Assembly: GCA_034006465.1 (NCBI GenBank)
Contig: JAVEST010000001.1
Span: forward strand, 6,116-70,115
Source of the DNA: Sulfurimonas sp.
GTDB lineage: Bacteria; Campylobacterota; Campylobacteria; Campylobacterales; Sulfurimonadaceae
Direction: 5' to 3'
DNA length: 64,000 nt
This document shows, piece after piece, positions 93 to 55,005 of the stretch (the first letter of the stretch is position 1; each line of letters begins with the position of its first letter). The notes under the pieces were generated by a model. It was not told the origin of the DNA, did no database searches, and was given only the letters and a program-made list of their open reading frames with translations. Made by a program: the position numbers and the translations under genes.

Positions 93-537
93 AGTGTTGA
101 TTCCAATTGTAGCTTTTTTTCTAATCTTCCTTATGGCACTCTATTTTCTTATAAACCCATCCTATGAAAAATCCCTAAAAGCAAAATATTACTATGAGAT
201 AGGCGAGTATAAAGAGGCTCTTTTTTATGCAAAAGAGGCTTTTAGTATGGATATATATAACCGTATGGCATCTACAGTTATGGCTCAGTCTATCACCTCT
301 CTTAAGTATGTCTCTTATATAGAAGATGCAAGAGCCTATATGCAAGATATCAATAAAATTGCCACACATGAAGTAATCTCTAACGCTGATAGAGCAAAGA
401 TAAGAACCATTTGTGAGATAATGATAAGTTCATATAAAAAATTAGCACCAAGTGTTGTGACTGACGAGAACTTAGTAAATCAAGCGGCAACATATAATAA
501 AGATTTCGAGAAGTTACTTGAAAAAGTTAATAAGTAA
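82..537 (+). CDS. Membrane-anchored hypothetical protein with a TPR-like helical segment
   Basis: N-terminal hydrophobic helix (VLIPIVAFFLIFLMALYFLI) then AKYYYEIGEYKEALFYAKEA, a TPR-like pattern. Confidence 0.65.
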   Translation: MRSRVLIPIVAFFLIFLMALYFLINPSYEKSLKAKYYYEIGEYKEALFYAKEAFSMDIYNRMASTVMAQSITSLKYVSYIEDARAYMQDINKIATHEVISNADRAKIRTICEIMISSYKKLAPSVVTDENLVNQAATYNKDFEKLLEKVNK

Positions 538-1351
538 GAAAAGAGTAACCTTTTTAGAGCATCTTGAAAGCTTTAGGGGTTATTCGGATCTGACTATAAA
601 GAGTTATGACGAAGCTATACAAGAAGCGCTAGAGTATGTAGAAATTTACGAAGAAGATGAAAAAACCACTATCAACCTTATGCCATATCGCATAAAAATA
701 GCAAAATTAAATCCTAAGAGTATAAGTAAAAAACTAAGTGCTATAAGAGGCTTTGTAGAGTTTTTAAATGATAACGAAATGAGTGTTTTTCTAAAGGCAG
801 ATGATAGTATAAAAGTAGCAAAAACTCTACCAAAACCAATATCACATAAACATATAATAGAGGCGCTAGAATACGCAGATGAGTATGAGAGACTAATCGT
901 TGTTATGCTCTACACTTTAGGCCTTAGAATATCTGAACTTTGTGATTTAAAACTAAGTGATATATCTAGTGAGTGGATAAGAGTTTTAGGTAAAGGCGCT
1001 AAACATAGAGATGTACCACTTCTTAAATCAACCAAGAAACTCATAGATGAGTATTTGTCCAAAAACTCCCCAAAAGTATTTCTTTTTGAGGCAAATGATG
1101 AAAGATTAAGCCAAAACACTCTAAGATATAGGGTTAATAAAGTCTTTAAAAGGGTAGGATTAAAAGTGTCGCCACATCAACTCCGTCACTCTTATGCGAC
1201 AGAGTTACTAAATGGTAGTGCATCTATCGCTGATGTTAGTGAACTTTTAGGGCACTCTAGCATGGCTACAACTCAAATATATACAAAATTAGGCAGTGCA
1301 TTGAAACAACAAAACTATAACAAAGCACATCCTTTATGTGGAGATGAATAG
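518..1351 (+). CDS. Tyrosine recombinase/integrase, XerC/XerD-like, 277 aa
   Basis: All catalytic motifs present: GLRISEL (R), GKGAKHR (K), HQLRHSYA (HxxR), LLGHSS (H), TQIYT (Y). Confidence 0.93.
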   Translation: MKKLISKKRVTFLEHLESFRGYSDLTIKSYDEAIQEALEYVEIYEEDEKTTINLMPYRIKIAKLNPKSISKKLSAIRGFVEFLNDNEMSVFLKADDSIKVAKTLPKPISHKHIIEALEYADEYERLIVVMLYTLGLRISELCDLKLSDISSEWIRVLGKGAKHRDVPLLKSTKKLIDEYLSKNSPKVFLFEANDERLSQNTLRYRVNKVFKRVGLKVSPHQLRHSYATELLNGSASIADVSELLGHSSMATTQIYTKLGSALKQQNYNKAHPLCGDE

Positions 1352-2358
1352 TGCTTGGCAAACTTTTTGAATCCATCTATAGTAAGGTTTTCGTAGCTAT
1401 TGTTATTGAACGTTCAAAGAGTGTTGTATATATTCAAATAAGTAGTAAAAAACATACCCCTAAAAACTATCATAAAAGCTTTGAAGATACAGAGTTTACT
1501 ACAACTATGAGAGAGTATATTGACTCTTTTATAGGTGAATCACCTTTTTCTTATATCTGCGTTTTAGACTACTCAGAGGAACAAGGTGCTATCCCAACAT
1601 GTTCTACTAAAGATATGTCAGCCTTTGGCGACTTTAGTGCTTCAAAGATGATGTGCCATGAAAATGATTGGGCTTATTACACATCAGTATCAGGCATTGA
1701 GACAATCAAAAAAACCTATGCAGGCATAGGAGTTGATTTTATATTTTCCTCTTTTAGTATATTGTCTAGTTTTTTTAAAGATAAAATAGAGACACAGTTA
1801 GGACTCTTTGTTCTAGTAGAAGAAAACTACATTACAGTAGGTGTTTTTGATAAAATGAAGCTCCTATTTGGCGAGCATTTATATGTTGGACATGATAACA
1901 ATCAAGATGAGATGATGATGGATTCATCAGATTCTGAGATTGATTTGGATTTAGAATCTAGTATAGATTTAGATGATATTGACACTATGAGTGATATTGA
2001 TGGTTTGGATGATTTTGGAGATATTGAAGATCTTGATGCCATAGATGAGATAGATGAATTTTCACAATCTCAAGATGATGATTTTTTAGATGAAGAGGAT
2101 GATTTTTTAGTTCAAGGCCCAAGTAGTTTTAATGAGGATTATCAAAGATTTACAGCTATTCAAAATTCTGTAAATAGGTTTTATAAAGACTCTAAATATC
2201 AAAGTAAATTTATAGAGACTGTTTATATCGCTGATGCTATAGGGGTAAGTGCTGATCTTAAAACATACCTTGAAGAAGAGATGTTCTTTAGCGTTTTTGT
2301 TAGACATATAGATCTTGGTGGTGAGATGATTGACCTTGCAAAGGCAGAGTTAAAATGA
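1351..2358 (+). CDS. Hypothetical protein with a long Asp/Glu-rich tract; putative PilM-like
   Basis: GTG start overlaps the recombinase stop; no transmembrane helix; acidic low-complexity stretch; first gene of a trio with PilN/PilO-like genes. Confidence 0.5.
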   Translation: MLGKLFESIYSKVFVAIVIERSKSVVYIQISSKKHTPKNYHKSFEDTEFTTTMREYIDSFIGESPFSYICVLDYSEEQGAIPTCSTKDMSAFGDFSASKMMCHENDWAYYTSVSGIETIKKTYAGIGVDFIFSSFSILSSFFKDKIETQLGLFVLVEENYITVGVFDKMKLLFGEHLYVGHDNNQDEMMMDSSDSEIDLDLESSIDLDDIDTMSDIDGLDDFGDIEDLDAIDEIDEFSQSQDDDFLDEEDDFLVQGPSSFNEDYQRFTAIQNSVNRFYKDSKYQSKFIETVYIADAIGVSADLKTYLEEEMFFSVFVRHIDLGGEMIDLAKAELK

Positions 2359-2918
2359 AATATAGTTATATAAAACCACGTAAAAAAAGTGTGATATCTG
2401 CAGAGCTAAAGTTAATCTTTAGTTTTTTCAGCATTACACTTATTATGCTTTTTTTAACTTATTTCTTTTTATTTTTTAAAGATTATAGATTTACTCAAAA
2501 TATAGAAGATATAAAACAAAAGATGATTGAGTTAGAAGCAAGTGTGCAAAAGATGAACTCACAGATAACTTTTATAGAAAAAGAAGTCCAACTTAGTGAG
2601 AGAATAAGCACTAAAAATACAGTACTAAAAGACTCTATAGCAAATCTTTTTGATCTTGTTCCACAAAGAATAACTCTATCACAAGCTACACTCTTAAAAA
2701 ATGGGCTAATACTCCATGGAATAACACCCAACAAAGATGTCTATAATTTTATGCTCCAAGCACCTCTTCGCTCTATCTTCCACAGAACTTATAGCAGTTT
2801 TTATGAGAGCCAAAATGGCTGGCTTAAGTTTGTTTCTACAAACTATATAGATGAAGAAGAGTTATCGCTAGAGTCTCCTAGATATGAGGAAGAAAAAGAG
2901 GTTGATGATGAAGATTAA
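2355..2918 (+). CDS. PilN-like bitopic membrane protein
   Basis: Short basic N-terminus, one TM helix, coiled coil, then LFDLVPQRITLSQATLLKNGLILHG resembling the PilN periplasmic domain; ATGA overlap with the upstream gene. Confidence 0.65.
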   Translation: MKYSYIKPRKKSVISAELKLIFSFFSITLIMLFLTYFFLFFKDYRFTQNIEDIKQKMIELEASVQKMNSQITFIEKEVQLSERISTKNTVLKDSIANLFDLVPQRITLSQATLLKNGLILHGITPNKDVYNFMLQAPLRSIFHRTYSSFYESQNGWLKFVSTNYIDEEELSLESPRYEEEKEVDDED

Positions 2919-3438
2919 TATAACAAAACAGAGCCTATATCTTCTTTTTTTCTCGATAATATTACTACTATTTGTGCTAATTTTTTCCTTTTTAGTTCTT
3001 ATCCCTGAGGGAAAAAACTATAGAGAACAAAGAGGAGTCCTAAATAAAGAGGCTATGGAGCTTAGAAGATATGAAGAGTTTACAGATAAAACTTTAGATA
3101 AGCTAAAGCAGTTACAGTCTGATAATGCCCATATAATAACCTCTTTTGACAACTCTTTTAATCCTGCAAGATTCAAAAAACTATTTAGAAATTATTTTAT
3201 ATCCCTAGAGTTATTAGAACAAAAACAACTAGCCGATGAAGACGAGTTTAGTGTTTATGAGGTAAATACAACTTCATCTATAAACTCTCCACAAAGTTTT
3301 TATAACTTCTTAGATGCAATAAACAAGTCTGATTGGATTATAGGTGTAAACTTTCCTATAGAGTTTAAACGAGACCATGAACTTATAAGTTCATCTTTTA
3401 CTATGAGAGTCTATAGAAGCAAAAAAGTATCACAGTAG
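2908..3438 (+). CDS. PilO-like bitopic membrane protein
   Basis: TM helix, coiled coil, then FYNFLDAINKSDWIIGV and a terminal beta-strand resembling PilO; start placed at ATG 2908 after a GAGG RBS. Confidence 0.62.
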   Translation: MKINITKQSLYLLFFSIILLLFVLIFSFLVLIPEGKNYREQRGVLNKEAMELRRYEEFTDKTLDKLKQLQSDNAHIITSFDNSFNPARFKKLFRNYFISLELLEQKQLADEDEFSVYEVNTTSSINSPQSFYNFLDAINKSDWIIGVNFPIEFKRDHELISSSFTMRVYRSKKVSQ

Positions 3439-43881: not shown

Positions 43882-44376
43882 TTACTCTTTTATCCCATCA
43901 AGAGTTTTAAAAAGTAACTCAGATAGTGTCGCTCTCTCTTTAGCATTGACATGACTAAACATCTTCTCTTCTAGCTCTATAACATCTCTAAGAGACTTCT
44001 CAACTATCTGCTTGCCACTCTTTGAAAGTCTCACAAGCTTACTTCTTTTGTCTTCTTTGTTATCAAGCCTCTTTATAAAGCCTTTTACTTCTAGTTTTTT
44101 TAAAACTTTTGTCATTCCACCAGAAGAGAAAAAGAGTCTTTCATATAACTTTGTAGGAGTTAATGTGTGCTTTTCATCTACAGATGAGTGAAGTGATGAG
44201 AGAACATCAAGCTCACTAGTTGAGATAGAGTATTTATCCTCCAAAAGAGTAGCGATGTGGGCTAAAATCTTTTCAGAGATGAGAATAAGAGGTAGAGTTA
44301 CATAGCCTATATTACTGCCGTTTGAGATATTTTTGTCTTTTTTGCTTAAGTGTAAGATTAGCTCATTTGAATTCAT
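43882..44376 (-). CDS. MarR-family transcriptional regulator
   Basis: ELDVLSSL, LTPTKL, SSGGMTKVLKKLE.KGFIKR, DKRSKLVRL winged helix; start set at the second ATG (44376). Confidence 0.92.
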   Translation of the reverse strand: MNSNELILHLSKKDKNISNGSNIGYVTLPLILISEKILAHIATLLEDKYSISTSELDVLSSLHSSVDEKHTLTPTKLYERLFFSSGGMTKVLKKLEVKGFIKRLDNKEDKRSKLVRLSKSGKQIVEKSLRDVIELEEKMFSHVNAKERATLSELLFKTLDGIKE

Positions 44377-44383
44377 AAAGTGC

Positions 44384-44418
44384 ATTATACTCAGATAAGA
44401 CTTTTAAGTAAATGCTTA
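44384..44418 (-). promoter_or_regulatory. marR promoter (-10 TATAAT) and palindromic operator candidate
   Basis: TATAAT at 44389-44384, 7 nt before ATG 44376; taagta-aa-tgctta near-palindrome at 44405-44418. Confidence 0.5.
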
Positions 44419-44432
44419 CGCAAATATCGGTA

Positions 44433-44855
44433 TTAATCGCTCTTTTGTGCTAGTTGTTTTACGACTGCATCTATAGAATTTTTATACCTTTTATTGTCTT
44501 TTATTTTATCAAAACTGCAGCTTAACATAGAGTAGATAAAAAACTTCGATTTTTTATCATATAGGCTTTTTAACATATAGATGATTGTTTTTGGCGAGAT
44601 ATGGTGGCTAAGGTTAAGATTGTCTTGCTCAGTTAAGGAGCAGGCTAGGGCGTAGTGGTTTTTTTCATCATAAGAAGCATCTATAAAGATTATTTCATTG
44701 GCATCTAAGAGTTGTAAAACTACTTCTGGAGTGAGTTGATGCAAAGATATGAGTTTTGTATTTTCCAAACCTAGCTTTTGGAGTTTTTTTATAGCATCAA
44801 CTCCAAAAGCATCTTCGCCTCTTAGCTCATTTCCATAGCCTATGATTACCCTCAT
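44433..44855 (-). CDS. hoxW: Hydrogenase maturation endopeptidase (HoxW-like)
   Basis: IGYGNELRGEDAFG, HQLTPE, FIDAS, SHH; directly after the large subunit gene. Confidence 0.88.
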   Translation of the reverse strand: MRVIIGYGNELRGEDAFGVDAIKKLQKLGLENTKLISLHQLTPEVVLQLLDANEIIFIDASYDEKNHYALACSLTEQDNLNLSHHISPKTIIYMLKSLYDKKSKFFIYSMLSCSFDKIKDNKRYKNSIDAVVKQLAQKSD

Positions 44856-46285
44856 TAGCTTCTCTCAAACACCTTTATTATCTTTTTATTATGGTCTCTT
44901 ACTTCTACTTTTGAAGATACAATCCCTAGTGCATGAGTAGAACAGCTAAGACAAGGGTCAAAACATCTAATCACTGCTTCAACTCTGTTTAGTGCACCAT
45001 CTGTTATGTTTTTTGGATCTACAAATCTTTGAGCAACTTGCTTAACCCCAGCGTTCATTGCTAAGTTGTTATTTCCAGTTGCAATTATAAGGTTAACTCC
45101 CGTGATGATGCCATCTTTTGTTACATGGTACTCATGAAAGAGAGTCCCTCTAGGAGCTTCTGAACACCCAACGCCTCTTTCATAACTGACTGTTGAAGTT
45201 GACCTTACATTATCACTCATCGTCTCATCACACTTTAAAAGTTCTTCTATCTTCTCGATAGCATAGATCATCTCGATAAGTCTTGCATAGTGGTAGTAAA
45301 AGGTGTTAAGAACAGGTTTTCCACCATTTAGAGCTTTGAACTTTATAAGTTCTTTGTCGGCTAAAGGAGTTCCACATGTTTTAGCGATGTTTACTCTAGC
45401 TAATGCACCTACACGGTACATCCCTTGTGGATATCCCATAGGTTTGTAGTATGGAGATTTTAGGTAGCTAAAATCTTCAACCGCTTCGCCTATAAACTCT
45501 TTATAGTCCCTAGGTTCAATCTTATCTTTTAAAATATTTCCTTCGCTGTCCATAAAACAAAGTTTTCCATTATAGTGCTCAAGCGTACCCTCATCATTTG
45601 ATATTGCCATAAAAAGTGATGGAAATGCACCTAAATAGTCTATCTCTTCTTGAAATTTATGTAGGTTTTCTCTAAAAAATTCTAAAGCACTCTGTGCTAT
45701 TTTTAACATATCTGGAACTTGTTCTAAGATAGCCTCTTTTGTGGACTCTTCTATCTTATGTGAGGCTCCGCCTGGGATGATTCCTGTAGGATGAATCCTT
45801 TTGCCTGCTAAATCTTCTATGATTTTTTGCCCAAACGCTCTTAGGTTTATACCATCTCTTGCCATTTGTGGATGTGTCTGCATCATCTTAAAGATATTTC
45901 TATCCTCTTTTGGAGCATCAAAGCCGTAGATAAAATCAGGGCTTGAGAGATGATAAAAGTTTAGTGTATGAGACTGAAGCATCTGAGCAAGATTTACGAT
46001 TTTTCTTATATTTACACCTGCTTTTGGAGGAGTGACGCCAAGTATCTCATCTATGGCTTTTGTAGCTGAGACCACATGACTCACTGGACAGATGCCACAT
46101 GTTCTAGCTGTTAGAGCTGGCATCTCTGTGTAGGGCCTACCCTCACAAAATTTCTCAAAACCACGGTACTGAGTCACATGAATCTTCGCATCTTCAACCT
46201 TACCGCTCTCATCTATATCTATAGTTATTTTTGCATGACCTTCAATTCTTGTTACTGGGTCTATGATTATTGTCTTTTTTTGCAT
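44855..46285 (-). CDS. hoxH: [NiFe]-hydrogenase large subunit, group 3d-type
   Basis: DPVTRIEGH, RGFEKF, RTCGICPVSH (L1), EAPRGTLFH, DPCLSCSTH (L2) plus a cleavable C-terminal tail. Confidence 0.95.
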   Translation of the reverse strand: MQKKTIIIDPVTRIEGHAKITIDIDESGKVEDAKIHVTQYRGFEKFCEGRPYTEMPALTARTCGICPVSHVVSATKAIDEILGVTPPKAGVNIRKIVNLAQMLQSHTLNFYHLSSPDFIYGFDAPKEDRNIFKMMQTHPQMARDGINLRAFGQKIIEDLAGKRIHPTGIIPGGASHKIEESTKEAILEQVPDMLKIAQSALEFFRENLHKFQEEIDYLGAFPSLFMAISNDEGTLEHYNGKLCFMDSEGNILKDKIEPRDYKEFIGEAVEDFSYLKSPYYKPMGYPQGMYRVGALARVNIAKTCGTPLADKELIKFKALNGGKPVLNTFYYHYARLIEMIYAIEKIEELLKCDETMSDNVRSTSTVSYERGVGCSEAPRGTLFHEYHVTKDGIITGVNLIIATGNNNLAMNAGVKQVAQRFVDPKNITDGALNRVEAVIRCFDPCLSCSTHALGIVSSKVEVRDHNKKIIKVFERS

Positions 46286-46287
46286 AA

Positions 46288-46821
46288 TTATTTTCCAAAC
46301 CTCGTTAGTTCATGTATTTTTATCTCTCTGCCTTCTATGAGAGCTTTAAGCATCTCATAGATTGCATCTGCTGGGGTAGGGCAACCTGGCAAAAAGTAGT
46401 CCACTTTTACAGCCTCATGTAGAGGTATAACCATGTCAAGGAGTGTTGGCACTACTTTTGATGGATACTCATGGTTTAAATCAGCAAGATCAAAATAGCC
46501 CTTTTGCAAAATCGCCTCACTACCATAGAGATTTTTCATAGCAGAAACATTTCCTGTAATCGCGCAATCCCCTAGAGCTAATATTAGCTTAGAGTTTTTT
46601 CTTATCTTTTTTATCATCTTTATGTCGTGGTCGGTGCTTAGAGCTCCTTCGACTATAGTTAAGTCAACATTCTCTGGAAACTCTTTCATATCAACATAGG
46701 GGCTGTAAACAACATCCACATACTCGGCTAACTCGATAAGTCTCTCATCCATATCTAAAAAAGACATATGACAACCAGAACAGCCATCAAGCCAGATGGT
46801 ACCTAGGCGTATTTTTTTCAT
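46288..46821 (-). CDS. hoxY: [NiFe]-hydrogenase small subunit
   Basis: WLDGCSGCHMSFLD, GDCAITGNV, LPGCPT; short single-cluster form. Confidence 0.93.
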   Translation of the reverse strand: MKKIRLGTIWLDGCSGCHMSFLDMDERLIELAEYVDVVYSPYVDMKEFPENVDLTIVEGALSTDHDIKMIKKIRKNSKLILALGDCAITGNVSAMKNLYGSEAILQKGYFDLADLNHEYPSKVVPTLLDMVIPLHEAVKVDYFLPGCPTPADAIYEMLKALIEGREIKIHELTRFGK

Positions 46822-47537
46822 TTTTGACCCCTGTTTTTAACAAGCTCTGTAACAATCTCTCGTTTTTTAATAATCTCTTCTTCACTTATATCTTTTTCAT
46901 AAAGCGCACCAGTAGGGCAGACATATACACACTTTCCACAACTCGTACAGCTTGTGGAATCAGCCCATGGTTCATCCATATCGTGGATTACTCTAGTGCC
47001 CAAACCTCTACCAAAAAGGTCAAGTGCGTGAGCTCCTTCTATCTCATCACAAACTCTGATACATCTCGTACACAAGATACATTTGTTTGGATCATTTACA
47101 AAGTTTTTATGTGAAGCATCTATCTCAAATCTTTGATTGAGATATGGGGTAAAACTGTGGCTAAGTTCAAGTTCTACGGATTTACTTTGAAGCTGGCAAT
47201 CCCCATTAACAACACAAGTACTACATGTATGATAACGCTCAGAAAACATCATGGAGAGAATCATCTCTCTTGCAGCTTTTATCTTAGGTGAGGAGGTGGT
47301 TACTTCCATTCCTTCTTTTATCTTTGCAGTACATGAGGGTATAGGTTCATGGCGTCCATCTATCTCGACTATGCACATTCTACATGAACCAACATCGCTA
47401 AGACCTCTTAAGTGACATAGTGTAGGAATATCGATACCGTTATCACGAGCGACCTCAAGTATGGTCTGGTTTGACTGCCCCGTGACGCAGATGCCGTCTA
47501 TCTTAAAATTTTTAACTCTTACTTTTGCTTTAATCAT
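46818..47537 (-). CDS. hoxU: Diaphorase Fe-S subunit
   Basis: IPTLCH..GSCRMC..C (2Fe-2S), HTCSTC...[26 protein letters not shown]. Confidence 0.93.
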
Positions 47538-48888
47538 TTTTTATCCCTGCTAGATATTCGTCTTCAAAGTATTTTATAGTGCTTAAAACTGGATTTGGGG
47601 CTGTTTGTCCAAGTCCACAAAGACTCGTACTCTTTACAACCTCACACATTTTTTTCAAAAGATCAAAATCTTGATGTGATGCCTCTTTTGCTATAAACTT
47701 ATCAAGTAGTCCTGTTAGCTGCGTAGTTCCAACGCGACACGGTGTACATTTCCCACATGATTCATTTGCACAAAAGTCCATAAAAAATCGTGCAATTTCT
47801 ACCATGTTAGAGCTATCGTCCATTACAATAAGACCACCACTTCCCATAATAGAATCTACCTCTTTTAATGATTCGTAATCTACTTTTAAGTCCAAGAGAT
47901 GCTCTGGAATACATCCTCCACTAGGGCCACCTGATTGGATGGCTTTAAATTTTCTTCCATCTTCAACCCCTCCGCCAATATCATAAACAAGCTCTCTTAG
48001 AGTCGTTCCCATCGGTACTTCAACAAGCCCAGTGTTTTTTATAAGTCCTGAGAGTGCAAAAACTTTTGTTCCACTTGAGTTTTCTGTTCCAATGGACTTA
48101 AACCACTCGCCGCCATTTTTGATGATTGGAGCTATATTTGCAAAGGTTTCAACATTGTTTAAAATAGTAGGCATTCCCCATAAACCATGATCACTTAGAT
48201 GCGGTGGCTTTTGTCTAGGATGTCCACGTCCACCTTCAATAGAAGCTATAAGTGCAGTTCCCTCTCCACACACAAATGCACCAGCACCTAGTCTTATCTC
48301 GATACTAAAGCCAAAGCCACTTTGAGCAATGTTTGCTCCTAAGATGCCAAGTCTAGTAGCCTGTTTTATTGCTCTTGTTAATCTTTTTACGGCTACTGGA
48401 TATTCGGCTCTAATATATATATAGCCTTTATCAGCACCACAAGCAAAACCTGCAATCGCCATCCCCTCTAGGACTCTGTGAGGATCACTCTCCATAACAG
48501 CTCTATCCATAAAAGCACCAGGATCGCCCTCATCGCCGTTACAGATGATGTATTTCTGCTCGCTTTGAACTTTTGAGACGCTCTCCCATTTTAGGCCCGC
48601 AGGATAGCCCCCGCCACCACGACCGCGAAGCCCACTTGTCTTTAACTCTTCAATGACATCTTTTGGACTCATTTCATCTAAGGCTTTAAAGAGTGACATA
48701 TAACCGCCATGTGCTATATAATCCTCAATATCTTCAGGATCGATGATTCCCTCATTTTCAAGAACAATTCTCTTTTGCTTTGTGTAAAAATCAGAGGTCA
48801 TATCGATAGTTATCTCTCTTGGATTAGTAGCGTTTTGAGCCTTTTTTTTATCTGCTAGCTCTTGAAGCTCTTCTATAGATGTAATCAT
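47530..48888 (-). CDS. hoxF: Diaphorase flavin subunit (NuoF/HoxF-like), short form
   Basis: [54 protein letters not shown]. Confidence 0.93.
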
Positions 48889-49400
48889 TTTATATCCTCC
48901 TCAATGCCGCAAAGCGGATTTTCAAGCGAAACATTTGCTTTTATATGCTCGTCGAAAACTATGACAGGAGCAATAGAACAGGTACCAACACATCTAGCAG
49001 TTAAGAGTGATAAAGCTTCATCTGAAGTTGTCTCTCCTGCTTTGATGCCATATCTCTGCTCAATTTTTTGAAGAATTTTTTCAGAGCCTTTTATATAACA
49101 GGCAGTCCCTGAGCAGACGACTATATTATGTCTGCCTTTTGGTTTTAATCTAAAGTTGCTGTAAAAAGTAGCAACTCCATAAACTTTAGAATAAGGCAAT
49201 TTTAGCCGTTTTGCAACGAACTTAAGAGTATCTATACCTAGATAGCCAAAAATTCCCTGAGCACTGTGGAGGACTTCTAGAAGAGAATCCTTTTCATAAC
49301 CGAGCTTTTTTATAGCTTTTTCAAGTGCACTGTATCTGTCGTCAGTAACTGTTGACATTCTAGACTCCGATTTAAATATATTTTTAGTATTATAAGTCAT
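48885..49400 (-). CDS. hoxE: [2Fe-2S] diaphorase subunit (NuoE/HoxE-like)
   Basis: [34 protein letters not shown]. Confidence 0.92.
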
Positions 49401-49577: not shown

Positions 49578-50615
49578 ATGAAGTACCTATTATTATGCGT
49601 GATTTTATTTTTAAATATCCAAGCGGCAGATGAAAAACCACAAGCTTCTTTAGTTGTAACAAAGCTCGTAAAAGAGGGCTATGCATCTGCTCTACAAAAC
49701 TATGTAGGTTCGCTATATTACGACATCAACTCAAACCTAGCATCTCAGAGTGCAGGAGCTGTAAGTGCAATCTTTGTAAAAGAGTCTCAAGCAGTAAAAA
49801 AGGGTGAAGTTTTAGTAAAACTAGATAGCTCAATCCTTGAAGCAAACATAAAAGCAAAAAAGGCTATGTTAAACTCATATTTGGCTAACTTCACAAAGCA
49901 GCAAAAAGACCTCCAAAGAGCAGATGCACTACTAAAGAAAAACTCTATAGCTCAAAGCTCACATGACAATACTTTTTATACACTAGAAGCTCTAAGCGCT
50001 GAGATAGAGGCACAAGAAGCTGAGCTTTTATCTATGAATATACAGCTTGATAAGATGAGCATAAAAGCTCCATTTGATAGCGTTGTAGTAAAAAGAAATG
50101 TAGATGTTGGAGAGTGGGTAACAGAGGGAAGTAGTGTTTTAAATATAGTAGATCCAAAGAGTATAGAAGCTGTGGTAAATGTTCCAAGTCAATTGTTGAG
50201 CATATTAAAAGAGGGACAAAAACTCCAAGCAAAGATAGATGCAAGGGATATAGAAGTTAGCATCAAAAGTATAGTCCCTCTAGCAGATAAAGCAAGTAGA
50301 ACGCTCCCACTAAAACTCTCTTTTGCATCTGAGAATAACCTTATAGAAGGTATGCGAATAGATGTAGAGGTTCCAACTCTAAAACAACAAAAAGTCTTGC
50401 TAGTTCCCCGTGATGCAGTTATTAAAAGATTTGGCAGTTATGTAGTCTTTAGCGTTGTAGATGCTAAAGCTGTAATGCTAAATGTAAAAGTAATAAACTA
50501 TAGCCAAAATGAAGCTGCCATCCTTAGTGATGAACTTAGTGAGGGTCAAAGAGTTGTTACAAAAGGAAATGAGAGAATTTTCCCAAATATGAGTGTAGTT
50601 GAGAAGGGTGATTAA
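49578..50615 (+). CDS. RND efflux periplasmic adaptor (membrane fusion protein)
   Basis: Signal peptide, lipoyl half-motifs (VKKGEVLVKLD; IKAPFD.VV..VDVGEWV), hairpin coiled coil, LLVPRDAV. Confidence 0.92.
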   Translation: MKYLLLCVILFLNIQAADEKPQASLVVTKLVKEGYASALQNYVGSLYYDINSNLASQSAGAVSAIFVKESQAVKKGEVLVKLDSSILEANIKAKKAMLNSYLANFTKQQKDLQRADALLKKNSIAQSSHDNTFYTLEALSAEIEAQEAELLSMNIQLDKMSIKAPFDSVVVKRNVDVGEWVTEGSSVLNIVDPKSIEAVVNVPSQLLSILKEGQKLQAKIDARDIEVSIKSIVPLADKASRTLPLKLSFASENNLIEGMRIDVEVPTLKQQKVLLVPRDAVIKRFGSYVVFSVVDAKAVMLNVKVINYSQNEAAILSDELSEGQRVVTKGNERIFPNMSVVEKGD

Positions 50616-53600
50616 TGAACTTTATTGATTTCTCTATCAAAAAACCCGTAACTATTCTTGTTGGGGTTCTCTTAATCATAATGTTTGGTTTAGTGGCTCT
50701 TTCGCAGCTTCCATACAAACTTACACCAAATGTAGTTGAGCCTGAGATTGGAGTTATCACTGTGTGGCCAGGGGCTACTCCTAGTGAGATTGAGCGCGAT
50801 ATTGTTCAAAAGCAAGAAGACCAGTTAAAATCAACTCCAGGTTTAGTCCGTTATGAGGCTATGGCATCTGATAATATGTCTGAAATCACCCTTACTTTTG
50901 ATGTCTCAACTGATATGAACAAGGCTCTTCTTGAAGTCTCAAACAAGTTAAATCAAGTTGAAAACTATCCTGAAAACGTCGAAAAACCAATCATCCAATC
51001 AGCTGGTTCAACGGCATCTCCTACCATTTGGATGGGATTTATCGCAAATGATGATAATGACAGGGATATAGATACATATCTAACATATTTAGACAATGAC
51101 ATAAAAGAGCAGTTTGAGCGAATTCAAGGAGTAGCTGGCATCTTCGTCCCTGGTGGAACGCTAGATGAACTTCACATAAGACTCTCACCTGCGAAACTTG
51201 CGGCTCACGCTTTAACTATAGAAGAAGTTGCAAATGCCATAGTAAATGAGAACATCGATACAGCTGCTGGAACAGTAGATATAGACAGACGAACATATCG
51301 TGTTAGAACCTCTGCTAGATTTAAGTCCATAGAAGATTTAGAGCAGATGGTGCTCTTTAATGATGGAGTAAGGAGTATTCGCTTAGGTGAAGTAGCTACT
51401 ATCTCAAAGGGTCACGCAAAAGTAGTTGCTAATATCTTACAATCAAGCGGAGATAAACTAAATAAAGCACTTATTTATGGTGTTAGAATGGAGCCATCAG
51501 CCAATGTTGTAGAGACTACAAATAAGGTTGAAGAGGTATTTAATCATCTAAATGCAAATGTTCTGCCAGAGCATAAGATTCACCTTGATTGGTTCTTTGA
51601 CCAAAGAGACTATATACAAGGGGCTATTGAGCTAGTTCAGCAAAATATTGCACTTGGCGGGGTTTTAGCTATCGTTATCTTGCTACTTTTCTTGCGTTCA
51701 TTTTTGCCTACTGTGGTGGTTTCAGCCGCAATTCCTATAAGTGTAATCGCTACTTTTATAGTCCTTAGTGCGATGGATAGAAGTCTAAATACAATCTCGC
51801 TAGCTGGAATCTCTTTTGCAGTTGGAATGCTACTAGATAGTGCCATTGTTGTGTTAGAAAATATAGACAGGCATCTAAAGATGGGCAAAAAACCTTTTGA
51901 TGCAGCTCATGATGGAACTGTAGAAGTTTGGGGTGCTTTGGTTGCATCTGCGCTTACTACCATCGCAGTTTTCTTGCCTGTTATATTTTTGCAATCAGAA
52001 GCTGGACAACTCTTTAAAGATATAGCAATAGCGGTCACTGCATCTATAACCTTTTCCCTTTTTGTATCCATCTCTGTTATCCCAATGCTTTGGACACAGT
52101 TTTTAAAGATAAGTAAGAGTGACCATGAAAAAGAGCATGAAATAGCTACTAAACCAAGAGACTCTCTCTTAGTAGCAATGGCAAAAAAAGTTGGCGCTTT
52201 TTTCATGGGTGCAGTTGAGTGGAGTTTAAAAAGAAGAATCAACCAGTTTGTAACCATCATATCTATGGGAGCTCTCTCGGGATTTTTGATTTTTATCTTT
52301 TTTCCAAAGATGGAGTACTTACCTCAAGGTAATCAAAACCTAGTTATGAACATACTTATCCCACCTCCAGGGCTCTCAGAAGATGAGAAAAAAGATATAG
52401 GGAAAAAACTTCATGAACATATGAAGCCTCACTATAGTAAAGACGAGGGTGGCATCCCACCTATAAAACATACGTTTTTTGTCTCATATCAAGATCTAAT
52501 TATCCAAGGAATGATATCGACTGAGGAGAGTAGAGCAGCAGAGTATGTTCCTTTTATGATGCCTGCAGTAAACAGCTTTCCTGGCGTCTTTGGCATCTCA
52601 CTTCAAAGGGGCGTTTTTGAGCAAGGTATAGGTGAGGGTAGAAATATAGACATCGATATAAGCGGTGATGATATGGAAAAACTAACTCAGATAGGAGGGA
52701 TGCTCTTTGGTGCAATCTCGCAACAGATGAAAGGCGCTCAAACTCGCCCAGTTCCATCCATAGAGGTTCTTTTTCCAGAAGCACTTCTTCTTCCAGATAG
52801 AAATGCGCTTGCAAGTGTTGGGATGAGCAGCCGAAGTTTCGGTTTTGCAGCAGATGTTTTGCTTGATGGTAGAAAGATTAGTGAATATACAGCGGATGGT
52901 GCCAAGTCAATTGACTTGATACTAAAGTCAGATGATGAGCTTATTAACTCGCCAGAGGCACTATATTTGACTCAGATAGCAACACCAAATGCAGGGTTAG
53001 TTCCTATCTCTGAACTCTCGCATCTAATACATACTACTAGCATCACTAAGATTCGTCACGTTGAGGGTAAAAGGACTATCACGCTTCAAGTTACACCGCC
53101 AACTACTATGACGCTTGAAGAGAGTATTGAGCAGTTAAAGGTTATCATTGAAAAAACTGTGCCAGCAACAATGTTACAAGATTCTACTAAGGTAAAACTT
53201 GCAGGAAAAGCGGACAAACTAGCTCAAACTATAGAGTCCATGAAGTACAATCTGCTTTTTGCTCTAATCATTATCTATCTTTTGATGAGTGCACTCTTTG
53301 CTAACTTTTTGTATCCGCTAGTTATCATGTTTACAGTTCCTATGGCTACAGCTGGAGGTTTTATTGGGCTAAAGCTTACAAATATGTATGTAGCCCCACA
53401 ACCACTTGATGTTCTTACGATGCTAGGCTTTATCATACTCATAGGTATAGTTGTAAACAACGCTATTTTGATAGTCCATCAGTCACTAAACAACATCAAA
53501 CATAGTGCTATGGTATATAAAGAGGCAATAGTAGAAGCTACACGCTCAAGACTAAGACCTATCTTTATGAGCTCACTAACCTCTGTTTTTGGAATGCTGC

Positions 53601-53767
53601 CACTTGTATTAGTTCCAGGACCTGGAAGTGAGTTTTACAGAGGTTTAGGCTCAGTTATCACTGGTGGTTTGGCTCTTTCTATGGTTTTTACTATCTTAGT
53701 GACACCAGCACTTTTATATCTCTTTTTAAGTTTTAAAAAAGATGAAAACGCAAAGGAAATTTCATGA
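50615..53767 (+). CDS. RND efflux permease (AcrB/AcrD/AcrF family)
   Basis: 1050 aa with two halves; GMLLDSAIVVLEN, GIVVNNAILIV, RLRPIFMSSLT. Confidence 0.95.
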   Translation: MNFIDFSIKKPVTILVGVLLIIMFGLVALSQLPYKLTPNVVEPEIGVITVWPGATPSEIERDIVQKQEDQLKSTPGLVRYEAMASDNMSEITLTFDVSTDMNKALLEVSNKLNQVENYPENVEKPIIQSAGSTASPTIWMGFIANDDNDRDIDTYLTYLDNDIKEQFERIQGVAGIFVPGGTLDELHIRLSPAKLAAHALTIEEVANAIVNENIDTAAGTVDIDRRTYRVRTSARFKSIEDLEQMVLFNDGVRSIRLGEVATISKGHAKVVANILQSSGDKLNKALIYGVRMEPSANVVETTNKVEEVFNHLNANVLPEHKIHLDWFFDQRDYIQGAIELVQQNIALGGVLAIVILLLFLRSFLPTVVVSAAIPISVIATFIVLSAMDRSLNTISLAGISFAVGMLLDSAIVVLENIDRHLKMGKKPFDAAHDGTVEVWGALVASALTTIAVFLPVIFLQSEAGQLFKDIAIAVTASITFSLFVSISVIPMLWTQFLKISKSDHEKEHEIATKPRDSLLVAMAKKVGAFFMGAVEWSLKRRINQFVTIISMGALSGFLIFIFFPKMEYLPQGNQNLVMNILIPPPGLSEDEKKDIGKKLHEHMKPHYSKDEGGIPPIKHTFFVSYQDLIIQGMISTEESRAAEYVPFMMPAVNSFPGVFGISLQRGVFEQGIGEGRNIDIDISGDDMEKLTQIGGMLFGAISQQMKGAQTRPVPSIEVLFPEALLLPDRNALASVGMSSRSFGFAADVLLDGRKISEYTADGAKSIDLILKSDDELINSPEALYLTQIATPNAGLVPISELSHLIHTTSITKIRHVEGKRTITLQVTPPTTMTLEESIEQLKVIIEKTVPATMLQDSTKVKLAGKADKLAQTIESMKYNLLFALIIIYLLMSALFANFLYPLVIMFTVPMATAGGFIGLKLTNMYVAPQPLDVLTMLGFIILIGIVVNNAILIVHQSLNNIKHSAMVYKEAIVEATRSRLRPIFMSSLTSVFGMLPLVLVPGPGSEFYRGLGSVITGGLALSMVFTILVTPALLYLFLSFKKDENAKEIS

Positions 53768-55005
53768 AAATAGCACTAATATTTCTGCTTTTTTATAGCA
53801 CGCTTTTTGCCTTAACACTAGAGGAGTCTTTAGAATTAGCGCTACAAAACTCTCCAAAAACCAAGATTTCTATAAGCAATGTAAAATATAGTGAACTTAA
53901 AAAAGATGAAGCTATTGCGGCTTACCACCCAACTCTAGATGCAGGCTTTGAGTATAAAGAGCTACAAAATACTACAGCTTTTACTTTTAGTCCAACTCAC
54001 AACTACAATCTAAGTTTAAAGTACAACCTCTTTAGAGGTTTTAGTGACTCTTCAACCATAGACTCTAAAGATGCAGAGATGCTCTCAGCTAGGCTTGAAG
54101 CAAAGGCAGTAGTAGCAGACTTAAAGTTAGATGTGATAGTGGCATATACTAACTACTTAAAAGCGCAAAAACTTATAGTCTCGCAAGAAGCAGAGTTTGC
54201 ATCTCTTACAAAACAATTCGATGATACAAAAAACAGATATGAGCAGGGCATCATCGCAAAGAATGACCTGCTTATGATAGATGTAGAGAGACTAAGATCA
54301 GAGCAAGCTCTTATAAAAGCAAAGAGTGACTTTGTAGTTGCTAAGAGTACACTTGAAAATATCATCGCTACAAAAATAGCAAATAGTGAGACTATTTCAG
54401 ACTTTGATGCAAGTGTTGCTGAGGTTGCAAGTTTAGAAGCGCTGGAAGTGAAGATGCTGCAGAATCGTAGTGAGATAAAGGCAATGCTATTTAAAAGCAA
54501 GTCTTTAGTTGCTCAAAGAGATGCAGTAGAGGGTAAGTACTTACCAACAGTAGATTTGCTAGCAAGATATGACCTTAATGATAAAGAGAGAAGATCAGGA
54601 GCTAGTATCGTCCAGCCAAAAGATCAAACCACTTATGGGGTAAATGTCTCATGGAATATCTACTCTGGTGGCAAAGACTATGCAGCGCAAAAAGCCCTTT
54701 TAGAAAAAGATAACCAACAAAACTATGAGCTAAATCAACTAAAACTAGATTTGAGCACACAACTTACAAAGGCTTACCAAGATCTTATAGTAGCAAAGAG
54801 TGCTAAAGTCGTTGCAAGTAAGGCAAAAGAGAGCGCAGAGGAGAACTACCGCATCACTTCAGATAGATATAGTTATGGAGATGTAGATACACTTACACTT
54901 TTAGTCTCACAAACTAGCTTAACTCAAGCTACAAATGCACACAATGATGCTTACTATAATCTCTATGTAGCTTATAAAACTCTTCACAGAGTGGTGGGTG
55001 AATAA
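53764..55005 (+). CDS. TolC-family outer membrane efflux protein
   Basis: LTLEESLELALQNSP, YHPTLD, YLPTVDL, SWNIYSGG, duplicated OEP repeats. Confidence 0.92.
   Translation: MKIALIFLLFYSTLFALTLEESLELALQNSPKTKISISNVKYSELKKDEAIAAYHPTLDAGFEYKELQNTTAFTFSPTHNYNLSLKYNLFRGFSDSSTIDSKDAEMLSARLEAKAVVADLKLDVIVAYTNYLKAQKLIVSQEAEFASLTKQFDDTKNRYEQGIIAKNDLLMIDVERLRSEQALIKAKSDFVVAKSTLENIIATKIANSETISDFDASVAEVASLEALEVKMLQNRSEIKAMLFKSKSLVAQRDAVEGKYLPTVDLLARYDLNDKERRSGASIVQPKDQTTYGVNVSWNIYSGGKDYAAQKALLEKDNQQNYELNQLKLDLSTQLTKAYQDLIVAKSAKVVASKAKESAEENYRITSDRYSYGDVDTLTLLVSQTSLTQATNAHNDAYYNLYVAYKTLHRVVGE

Follow-up and report, generated by a model that had tools for sequence, protein, structure and literature searches.

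The window analysed here, a stretch of 64,000 nucleotides from a Sulfurimonas sp. genome (assembly GCA_034006465.1, contig JAVEST010000001.1), encodes a cytoplasmic bidirectional [NiFe] hydrogenase of the HoxEFUYH type, and its diaphorase subunit HoxF deviates at three linked positions from proteins that use nicotinamide adenine dinucleotide (NAD(H)). The glutamate that discriminates between NAD(H) and the phosphorylated form NADP(H) is replaced by Gly210, an adenine-stacking Phe or Tyr by His230 and a near-invariant Pro by Leu231. Judged from these residues, their conservation, their equivalence to experimentally tested sites and their covariation, HoxF accepts NADP(H), in preference to NAD(H) or alongside it, with a probability of about 0.6. 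NADP(H) would, with similar confidence, be a physiologically relevant partner and is probably accepted no less readily than NAD(H); strict NADP specificity is a tentative and less probable proposal. A preliminary description of this DNA had put forward a NADP(H)-linked Hox on the grounds of residue 210. The candidate was strengthened by independent sequence evidence, but residue 210 is just one of three linked changes, and the three-position pattern weighs more than this residue alone.

Gly210 lies inside the HoxF motif at residues 201-213, and the minus-strand read of 48200-48320 contains ggtgctggtgcatttgtgtgtggagagggaactgcactt. Ungapped phmmer alignments placed residue 183 of E. coli NuoF (7awt_F, NuoF 153-239 against query 2-88) and residue 185 of T. 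thermophilus Nqo1 opposite G210, which bears out the assignment of G210 to the second Glu of the CGEET motif. Among the 120 closest HoxF homologues, which come from Sulfurimonas, Arcobacteraceae and other Campylobacterota and are 72-100 % identical, the motif read CGEAT in 113, CGEGT in 7 and CGEET in none. Of the cultured carriers, S. hongkongensis has the Gly form, and Arcobacter anaerophilus and Halarcobacter ebronensis have the Ala form. Loci retrieved from GTDB genomes (L001 to L021, all Campylobacterota) presented the same picture with Ala in 19, Gly in 2 and Glu in 0, and only in relatives under about 67 % identity was the motif nearly always CGEET. Gly is thus not fixed in the homologues, a point raised beforehand; Ala predominates. 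The Ala codons at position 210 differ synonymously among the 21 loci (GCG, GCA, GCT, GCC), as do the His230 codons, and GGA is confined to the window, L001 and L002. Because Ala is encoded by GCN across the clade and Gly by GGA in these three loci alone, the codons indicate that the Campylobacterota Hox clade lost the Glu already on its stem, with Gly as a later Ala-to-Gly change. A direct Glu-to-Gly origin by the single-base step GAA to GGA, as first assumed, is ruled out by the GCN codons of the relatives. In the hoxF homologue of Sulfurimonas sp. GWF2_37_8 (L029, 8001-9329; 64 % identity) the CGExT..PP loop is masked as N and residue 210 is unreadable.

The preliminary description had cautioned that the glycine could stem from a sequencing or assembly error or be a private strain polymorphism devoid of functional meaning, and Gly is one base away from the Ala codon of the clade. 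Logan contigs from four metagenome runs of four studies (two landfill, one unspecified, one manure), with assembler depths of about 80x, 6x, 6x and 27x, were however identical over 48100-48420, revealed no variant and confirmed GGA at 48259-48261; being assemblies in which rare variants are dropped, they prove the presence of this codon and permit minor alleles. Together with the recurrence of GEGT in the seven homologues and two GTDB genomes and the lack of Glu in all relatives at 72 % identity or above, the independent contigs led to the rejection of an error or private variant, the probability of which is practically negligible.

The loop located 17 to 21 residues after G210 reads K227-P-P-H230-L231 in the window versus [KR]-P-P-[FY]-P in NAD-type proteins. 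The pattern KPPHL[ST][DN] was present in 120 of the 120 closest homologues and likewise in the 21 Campylobacterota loci. Opposite His230 stand F205 of Nqo1 (ungapped phmmer alignment), L279 of R. capsulatus FdsB, R340 of T. kivui HydB and Y312 of Synechocystis HoxF, and Leu231 corresponds to T341 of T. kivui; the equivalences of H230 with Y312 and of Tyr95 with Synechocystis Y177 and T. kivui F205 derive from a constant residue offset and not from a structural superposition. Covariation was studied on representatives of 50 %-identity clusters from an exhaustive HMMER search, of which the 115 closest with an intact CGE motif comprised 97 with Glu and 18 with another residue at position 210. A basic residue (His or Arg) at position 230 was found in 15 of 17 non-Glu and in 2 of 96 Glu representatives (Fisher p about 1e-14, phylogeny not accounted for), and Pro231 in 95 of 97 Glu versus 1 of 18 non-Glu representatives. 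In an unbiased scan of about 410 positions the best partners of position 210 were 231, 228-230 and 227. Parsimony on a rough neighbour-joining tree, built without the signature columns, required 12 changes between Glu and non-Glu; separate non-Glu lineages number about eleven, and in about 8 of them position 230 is occupied by His or Arg. Loss of the Glu is not uncommon in the wider family, and some of the 18 non-Glu proteins are encoded beside [FeFe] hydrogenase genes (Verrucomicrobia, Clostridia). Positions 210 and 231 also present the sharpest differences between clade and outgroup, the clade residue occurring in 0 % and 1 % of the 97 Glu-type representatives.

At three further positions the clade departs from Glu-type proteins: it has N361, K401 and G448 (codons at about 47806-47808, 47686-47688 and 47545-47547), where 70 %, 88 % and 72 % of the outgroup have Cys, Gly and His, respectively. 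The outgroup Cys361 and His448 may be ligands of the hinge metal site in HydB-type proteins with a C-terminal domain. The loop variants GDEGDPG and ADEGDPG, proposed as markers for NADP and NAD (PMC9431212), were only weakly associated with position 210 and were not used as evidence; in the window the loop is of the Gly form (G118), which occurs in 7 of 18 non-Glu and 28 of 97 Glu representatives.

The natural enzyme that anchors the signature experimentally is the hydrogenase HydABC of T. kivui, which reduces NADP+ and not NAD+ (PMC8578170) and in which, according to PMC10021017, Arg340 of HydB contacts the bound NADP+. Its HydB (8a6t_B; CGES320TAL...RPPR340TNE) was the sole chain with a non-Glu and a basic residue among the solved chains aligned; CGEET...PP[FY]P was present in the NAD-type chains, i.e. 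the HydB proteins of A. woodii, T. maritima and A. mobile, NfnB and 9bov_B. In T. kivui HydB, as in the window, the Glu is replaced (Ser320), the residue at +20 is basic (Arg340) and Pro is missing at +21 (Thr341), and the NuoF cores match strongly (E=7e-169), but HydB has an [FeFe] instead of a [NiFe] partner, Ser and Arg in place of Gly and His, and extra N- and C-terminal Fe-S domains. In the molybdenum formate dehydrogenase of R. capsulatus, Glu259, Lys276 and Leu279 of FdsB were chosen as specificity determinants from the NADH-bound structure, and the variants E259G/R/H/Q/K, L279R and K276A each gained NADP+ activity, the highest NADP+ kcat/Km being that of E259G (PMC10671435). By the ungapped coordinates of 6tg9_B, G210 and H230 are the exact counterparts of E259 and L279 in FdsB, two sites at which a single change each confers NADP+ activity; FdsB differs in its partner, and its variants are engineered, have a millimolar Km and retain NAD+ activity. 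Residue 183 of E. coli NuoF belongs to the respiratory complex I and not to a hydrogenase. Variants of E. coli complex I at NuoF E183 were reportedly described by Morina et al. in 2011. Replacement of E183 by Gln or His raised the affinity for NADPH, according to the summary in PMC10671435.

Among the [NiFe] hydrogenases, the soluble hydrogenase of Cupriavidus necator was cited beforehand as shifted towards NADP+ by the exchange E341A in HoxF. The gain of NADP+ reduction was upheld, but the variant in the literature is the double exchange E341A/S342R, with a kcat of about 6 s-1 (Preissler et al. 2020, cited in PMC10127272 and PMC12809855); it is still called the best NADP+-engineered soluble hydrogenase. 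This NAD-reducing [NiFe] enzyme resembles the one in the window in that the natural Ala of the clade equals the E341A substitution, an equivalence taken from the literature and not from an alignment; it differs as a man-made variant with an added Arg where the window has Thr211 and as a HoxFUYHI2-type hydrogenase without HoxE. The engineered enzymes lend weight to a second explanation, in which the enzyme is relaxed but remains centred on NAD(H) and NADP(H) turnover is minor: FdsB E259G and related variants as well as C. necator E341A/S342R retained NAD+ activity with modest NADP+ kinetics, so that loss of the Glu alone relaxes the specificity and does not switch it. The natural soluble hydrogenase of H. 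pseudoflava likewise reduced NADP+ at merely 0.8 U/mg compared to about 34 U/mg for NAD+. His230 and Leu231 are however conserved throughout the clade, and the recurrence of such changes with a non-Glu residue in about eight independent lineages is hard to credit to drift alone; moreover, the pattern recurs at all three positions in T. kivui HydB, which is strictly NADP+-specific. An NAD(H)-centred enzyme of relaxed specificity is therefore considered unlikely, although it is the most serious of the competing explanations.

The deviation is restricted to one branch of the Hox enzymes examined. Where hoxY and hoxH were adjacent to hoxF, 14 Campylobacterota loci encoded Ala or Gly together with His, whereas ten loci elsewhere (Planctomycetota, Chloroflexota, Gammaproteobacteria, Bacteroidota, Heimdallarchaeota, Bipolaricaulota and others) encoded Glu together with Phe or Tyr. 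The cyanobacterial hoxF genes checked (L024, L045) have Glu, Tyr and Pro at positions 210, 230 and 231; the cyanobacterial HoxF proteins retrieved were 61-64 % identical to that of the window. For a cyanobacterium, Synechocystis sp. PCC 6803, the purified HoxEFUYH uses NAD(H) and ferredoxin while NADPH works in neither direction, and in its cryo-electron microscopy structure the adenine of NADH is held between Tyr177 and Tyr312 (bioRxiv 10.64898/2026.06.25.734504). Like the window enzyme, that of Synechocystis, a group 3d hydrogenase, has the five subunits HoxE, F, U, Y and H with HoxE as a separate protein, and both HoxF proteins have the AFM, Phe and GGPSG motifs. The Synechocystis enzyme differs in being specific for NAD(H) and in a HoxF with an N-terminal [2Fe-2S] domain; the window HoxF combines Gly, His and Leu and lacks this domain.

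In the proposed mechanism, H2 would be oxidized at the Ni-Fe site of HoxH, and the electrons would pass via the Fe-S clusters of HoxY and HoxU to the flavin mononucleotide (FMN) of HoxF, from which a hydride would be transferred to the nicotinamide cofactor in the reversible reaction H2 + NADP+ <-> NADPH + H+. Gly210 would take the place of the carboxylate that forms hydrogen bonds to the 2'- and 3'-OH of the adenosine ribose of NADH and repels the 2'-phosphate of NADPH. Without a carboxylate at position 210, room for the 2'-phosphate may be gained and the repulsion abolished. His230, stacked on the adenine, and Lys227 may bind the 2'-phosphate, and Leu231 in place of Pro may alter the loop backbone. 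NADP(H) use was therefore proposed, since Gly210, His230 and Leu231 together may provide space and a basic ligand for the 2'-phosphate. Sulfurimonas species fix carbon via the reverse tricarboxylic acid cycle; for such an autotroph, H2 would yield NADPH directly, as reductant for biosynthesis or for carbon fixation by this cycle.

Several observations weigh against the use of NADP(H). For all members of the clade, the cofactor preference is a prediction from sequence, and the sole experimentally anchored natural signature, that of T. kivui HydB, consists of Ser and Arg and not of Gly or Ala and His. Histidine binds phosphate more weakly than arginine and may be uncharged at cytoplasmic pH. The covariation statistics ignore phylogeny, and the neighbour-joining tree they are set beside is a rough one. 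A search for the NADP-specific HytB of C. autoethanogenum as a second anchor returned Desulfobacterota proteins and no clostridial HytB. Engineered Glu-to-Gly and Glu-to-Ala variants retain NAD+ activity and have a Km for NADP+ in the millimolar range (PMC10671435). Finally, in the one paper found on an enzyme of the clade, that from Arcobacter anaerophilus was called NAD+-reducing, by homology alone and without residue analysis or assay; the authors speculated that NADH would need conversion to NADPH for CO2 fixation (PMC4584990).

The second Glu of CGEET, conserved in NAD-type members of the NuoF/HoxF/HydB (Complex1_51K) family, is dispensable for the fold. HoxF possesses the complete domain set of this family, with the glycine-rich loop for the nucleotide and the CxxCxxC...C motif that ligates the [4Fe-4S] cluster: matches to PF01512 (2e-46, Nuo51 FMN-binding), PF10531 (7e-08, SLBB) and PF10589 (2e-33, NADH_4Fe-4S) were obtained, and the motifs RGRGGGGYP (88-96), AFM (125), GGPSG (320), CGKCTPC (378) and, further on, SLCGLG were recognized. 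An N-terminal [2Fe-2S] and a C-terminal 2x[4Fe-4S] domain are absent, with no match to Fer4 or PF01257 in Pfam; in alignments to PDB chains, HoxF starts at about residue 110 and ends (residue 452) at about residue 528 of HydB chains of 597-630 aa. In phmmer searches of the PDB, HoxF matched 7t2r_B (4e-177), 7q4v_B (1e-175) and 8a6t_B (7e-169), and HoxH matched 7t2r_D (1e-145) and 5xf9_D (4e-109). The best solved match of both subunits, PDB entry 7t2r, we take to be the bifurcating NiFe-HydABCSL of Acetomicrobium mobile; its HydB differs by CGEET and PPF and by extra Fe-S domains.

These matches to subunits of bifurcating enzymes point to a further explanation, a bifurcating or confurcating hydrogenase that, as recently reported for HoxEFUYH of Synechocystis, would couple the oxidation of H2 to the simultaneous reduction of a pyridine nucleotide (here NADP+) and ferredoxin, two reductants for the reverse tricarboxylic acid cycle. 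HoxE is present, and the AFM motif, a single Phe (F205) and the GGPSG motif of HoxF were cited as typical of bifurcating hydrogenases (bioRxiv 10.64898/2026.06.25.734504). On the other hand, HoxF has no HydB-type C-terminal 2x[4Fe-4S] domain and lacks the N-terminal [2Fe-2S] cluster (F2), one of the two clusters proposed to face ferredoxin (bioRxiv 10.64898/2026.06.25.734504), and according to PMC7311640 bifurcating and non-bifurcating hydrogenases have different beta subunits. Such a bifurcation is quite improbable for the window enzyme, and so is the broader proposal that the Campylobacterota HoxEFUYH are natural NADP+- and ferredoxin-dependent bifurcating [NiFe] hydrogenases in which electrons of H2 yield NADPH and reduced ferredoxin. 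If true, the enzyme of the Sulfurimonas subclade would bifurcate without the [2Fe-2S] domain of HoxF. To our knowledge, no NADP-specific bifurcating [NiFe] hydrogenase and no group 3d enzyme of the NADP type has been described, so that it would be the first of either kind. In the Sulfurimonas subclade L001-L009, HoxF comprises 443-452 aa, starts at the stop codon of hoxE and lacks the N-terminal thioredoxin-like [2Fe-2S] domain of about 90 aa, which is present in the cyanobacterial HoxF and in the HoxF of 535-543 aa of the Campylobacterota loci L010-L021 (with a PF01257 match in some). The subclade has thus undergone a lineage-specific loss of one Fe-S cluster of HoxF, the cluster that has been proposed as ferredoxin-facing.

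In open-access text we found neither a [NiFe] Hox hydrogenase reported to have lost this Glu naturally nor any mention of the signature at three positions; the paper on the Stn transhydrogenase does not discuss how the nucleotides are discriminated. In Sulfurimonas and Arcobacteraceae, the genes of the clade bear the annotation "NAD+-reducing hydrogenase" or "NuoF". With NADP(H) as partner, H2 would feed directly into the biosynthetic reductant pool of these sulfur-oxidizing autotrophs. Recycling of NADPH with H2 at present relies on the engineered hydrogenase of C. necator or on natural enzymes with a weak side activity; a Hox lineage in which a NADP-type pocket has evolved naturally, if confirmed, would be an enzyme source and a design template (Ala or Gly, His at +20, non-Pro at +21). 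The signature might serve as a simple rule to tell NAD from NADP use in HydB, HoxF, FdsB and NuoF modules, anchored experimentally by one natural enzyme.

The features of the locus are listed in the table.

Table. Genes of the hydrogenase locus and cofactor-binding residues of HoxF in the window
Feature	Position	Strand	Description
hoxE	48885..49400	-	171 aa, NuoE-like thioredoxin-type [2Fe-2S] subunit; Pfam PF01257 E=5.5e-43
hoxF	47530..48888	-	452 aa, NuoF-family FMN/[4Fe-4S] diaphorase subunit
hoxU	46818..47537	-	239 aa, [2Fe-2S] and [4Fe-4S] electron-transfer subunit; Pfam Fer2_4, NADH-G_4Fe-4S_3
hoxY	46288..46821	-	177 aa, [NiFe]-hydrogenase small subunit; Pfam PF01058 1e-28
hoxH	44855..46285	-	476 aa, [NiFe]-hydrogenase large subunit; Pfam PF00374
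hoxW-like gene	44433..44855	-	140 aa, maturation endopeptidase; TIGR00072 44.6 bits, slightly under the cutoff of 47.45
MarR-family regulator	43882..44385	-	Pfam MarR 2.8e-10; just downstream of the hoxW-like gene; also present in L001
Gly210	48259..48261	-	Codon GGA; position of the NAD/NADP-discriminating Glu; equals E. coli NuoF E183, Nqo1 E185, FdsB E259, T. kivui HydB S320
His230-Leu231	48196..48201	-	Codons CAT CTA; replace the adenine-stacking Phe/Tyr (+20 from G210) and the near-invariant Pro (+21)
Lys227	48208..48210	-	Conserved basic residue of the adenosine-binding loop; equals Nqo1 K202, FdsB K276
Tyr95	48604..48606	-	Glycine-rich loop RGRGGGGYP, other face of the adenine sandwich; equals, by constant residue offset, T. 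kivui F205 and Synechocystis Y177

The assignment of the gene to a Hox hydrogenase, made in the preliminary description, agrees with the operon hoxEFUYH-hoxW. The stop codon of hoxE overlaps the start codon of hoxF, HoxH has both Ni-Fe ligand motifs (RTCGICPVSH near the N terminus, DPCLSCSTH near the C terminus), and the hoxW-like gene directly follows hoxH, an arrangement kept in those Campylobacterota loci whose sequence covers that region. The order hoxE-F-U-Y-H followed by hoxW was the same in 15 of the loci L001-L021, namely those with sequence spanning the whole operon. Whether the MarR gene is a member of the operon is uncertain. HoxE (NF005747, 206 bits versus a cutoff of 224) and HoxU (NF005745, 309 versus 333) scored just under the cutoffs of the NCBIfam equivalog models, and HoxF was likewise under those of the NuoF models, consistent with the generic names ('NuoF family protein') that clade members carry at NCBI. 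Of the named relatives, Sulfurimonas sp. (94 % identity) is nearest, followed by S. hongkongensis with 91 %, and the DNA was also found in metagenomes from landfill, manure and biogas. A search for expression data on the operon yielded none.

The operon is flanked by the housekeeping genes rho, murI and dnaX on one side and by a divergent RND efflux operon on the other. The latter (49578-55005; HlyD-family adaptor, AcrB-family pump and outer-membrane factor) is separated from hoxE by 177 bp of intergenic DNA, and AcrB and HlyD homologues flank hoxE likewise in L001. At 518-3438 the window contains a gene for a tyrosine recombinase of the phage-integrase family (518-1351) followed by three open reading frames without Pfam match (1351-3438), perhaps the border of a mobile element. 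In the metagenome chromosome OW818672.1 (L007, 10139-15359) a 5.4-kb insert between hoxU and hoxY splits the operon; it has four open reading frames on the opposite strand, coding for 286, 411, 557 and 419 aa. The 557-aa product contains the P-loop GPPGTGKT, and by eye the 557-aa and 411-aa products look like an McrBC-type restriction pair, accompanied by a further ATPase. At the same site, the Sulfurimonas metagenome-assembled genome bin 12 (L002, 5350-6354; GEGT type) has an opposite-strand open reading frame of 334 aa with a signal-peptide-like N terminus. A second homologue of the [NiFe] large subunit, 22 % identical to HoxH, is encoded in two loci of Sulfurimonadaceae/Campylobacterales (L019, 7217-8488; L021, 13891-15147) about 1.5 kb downstream of hoxW, where the window has the MarR gene and rho.

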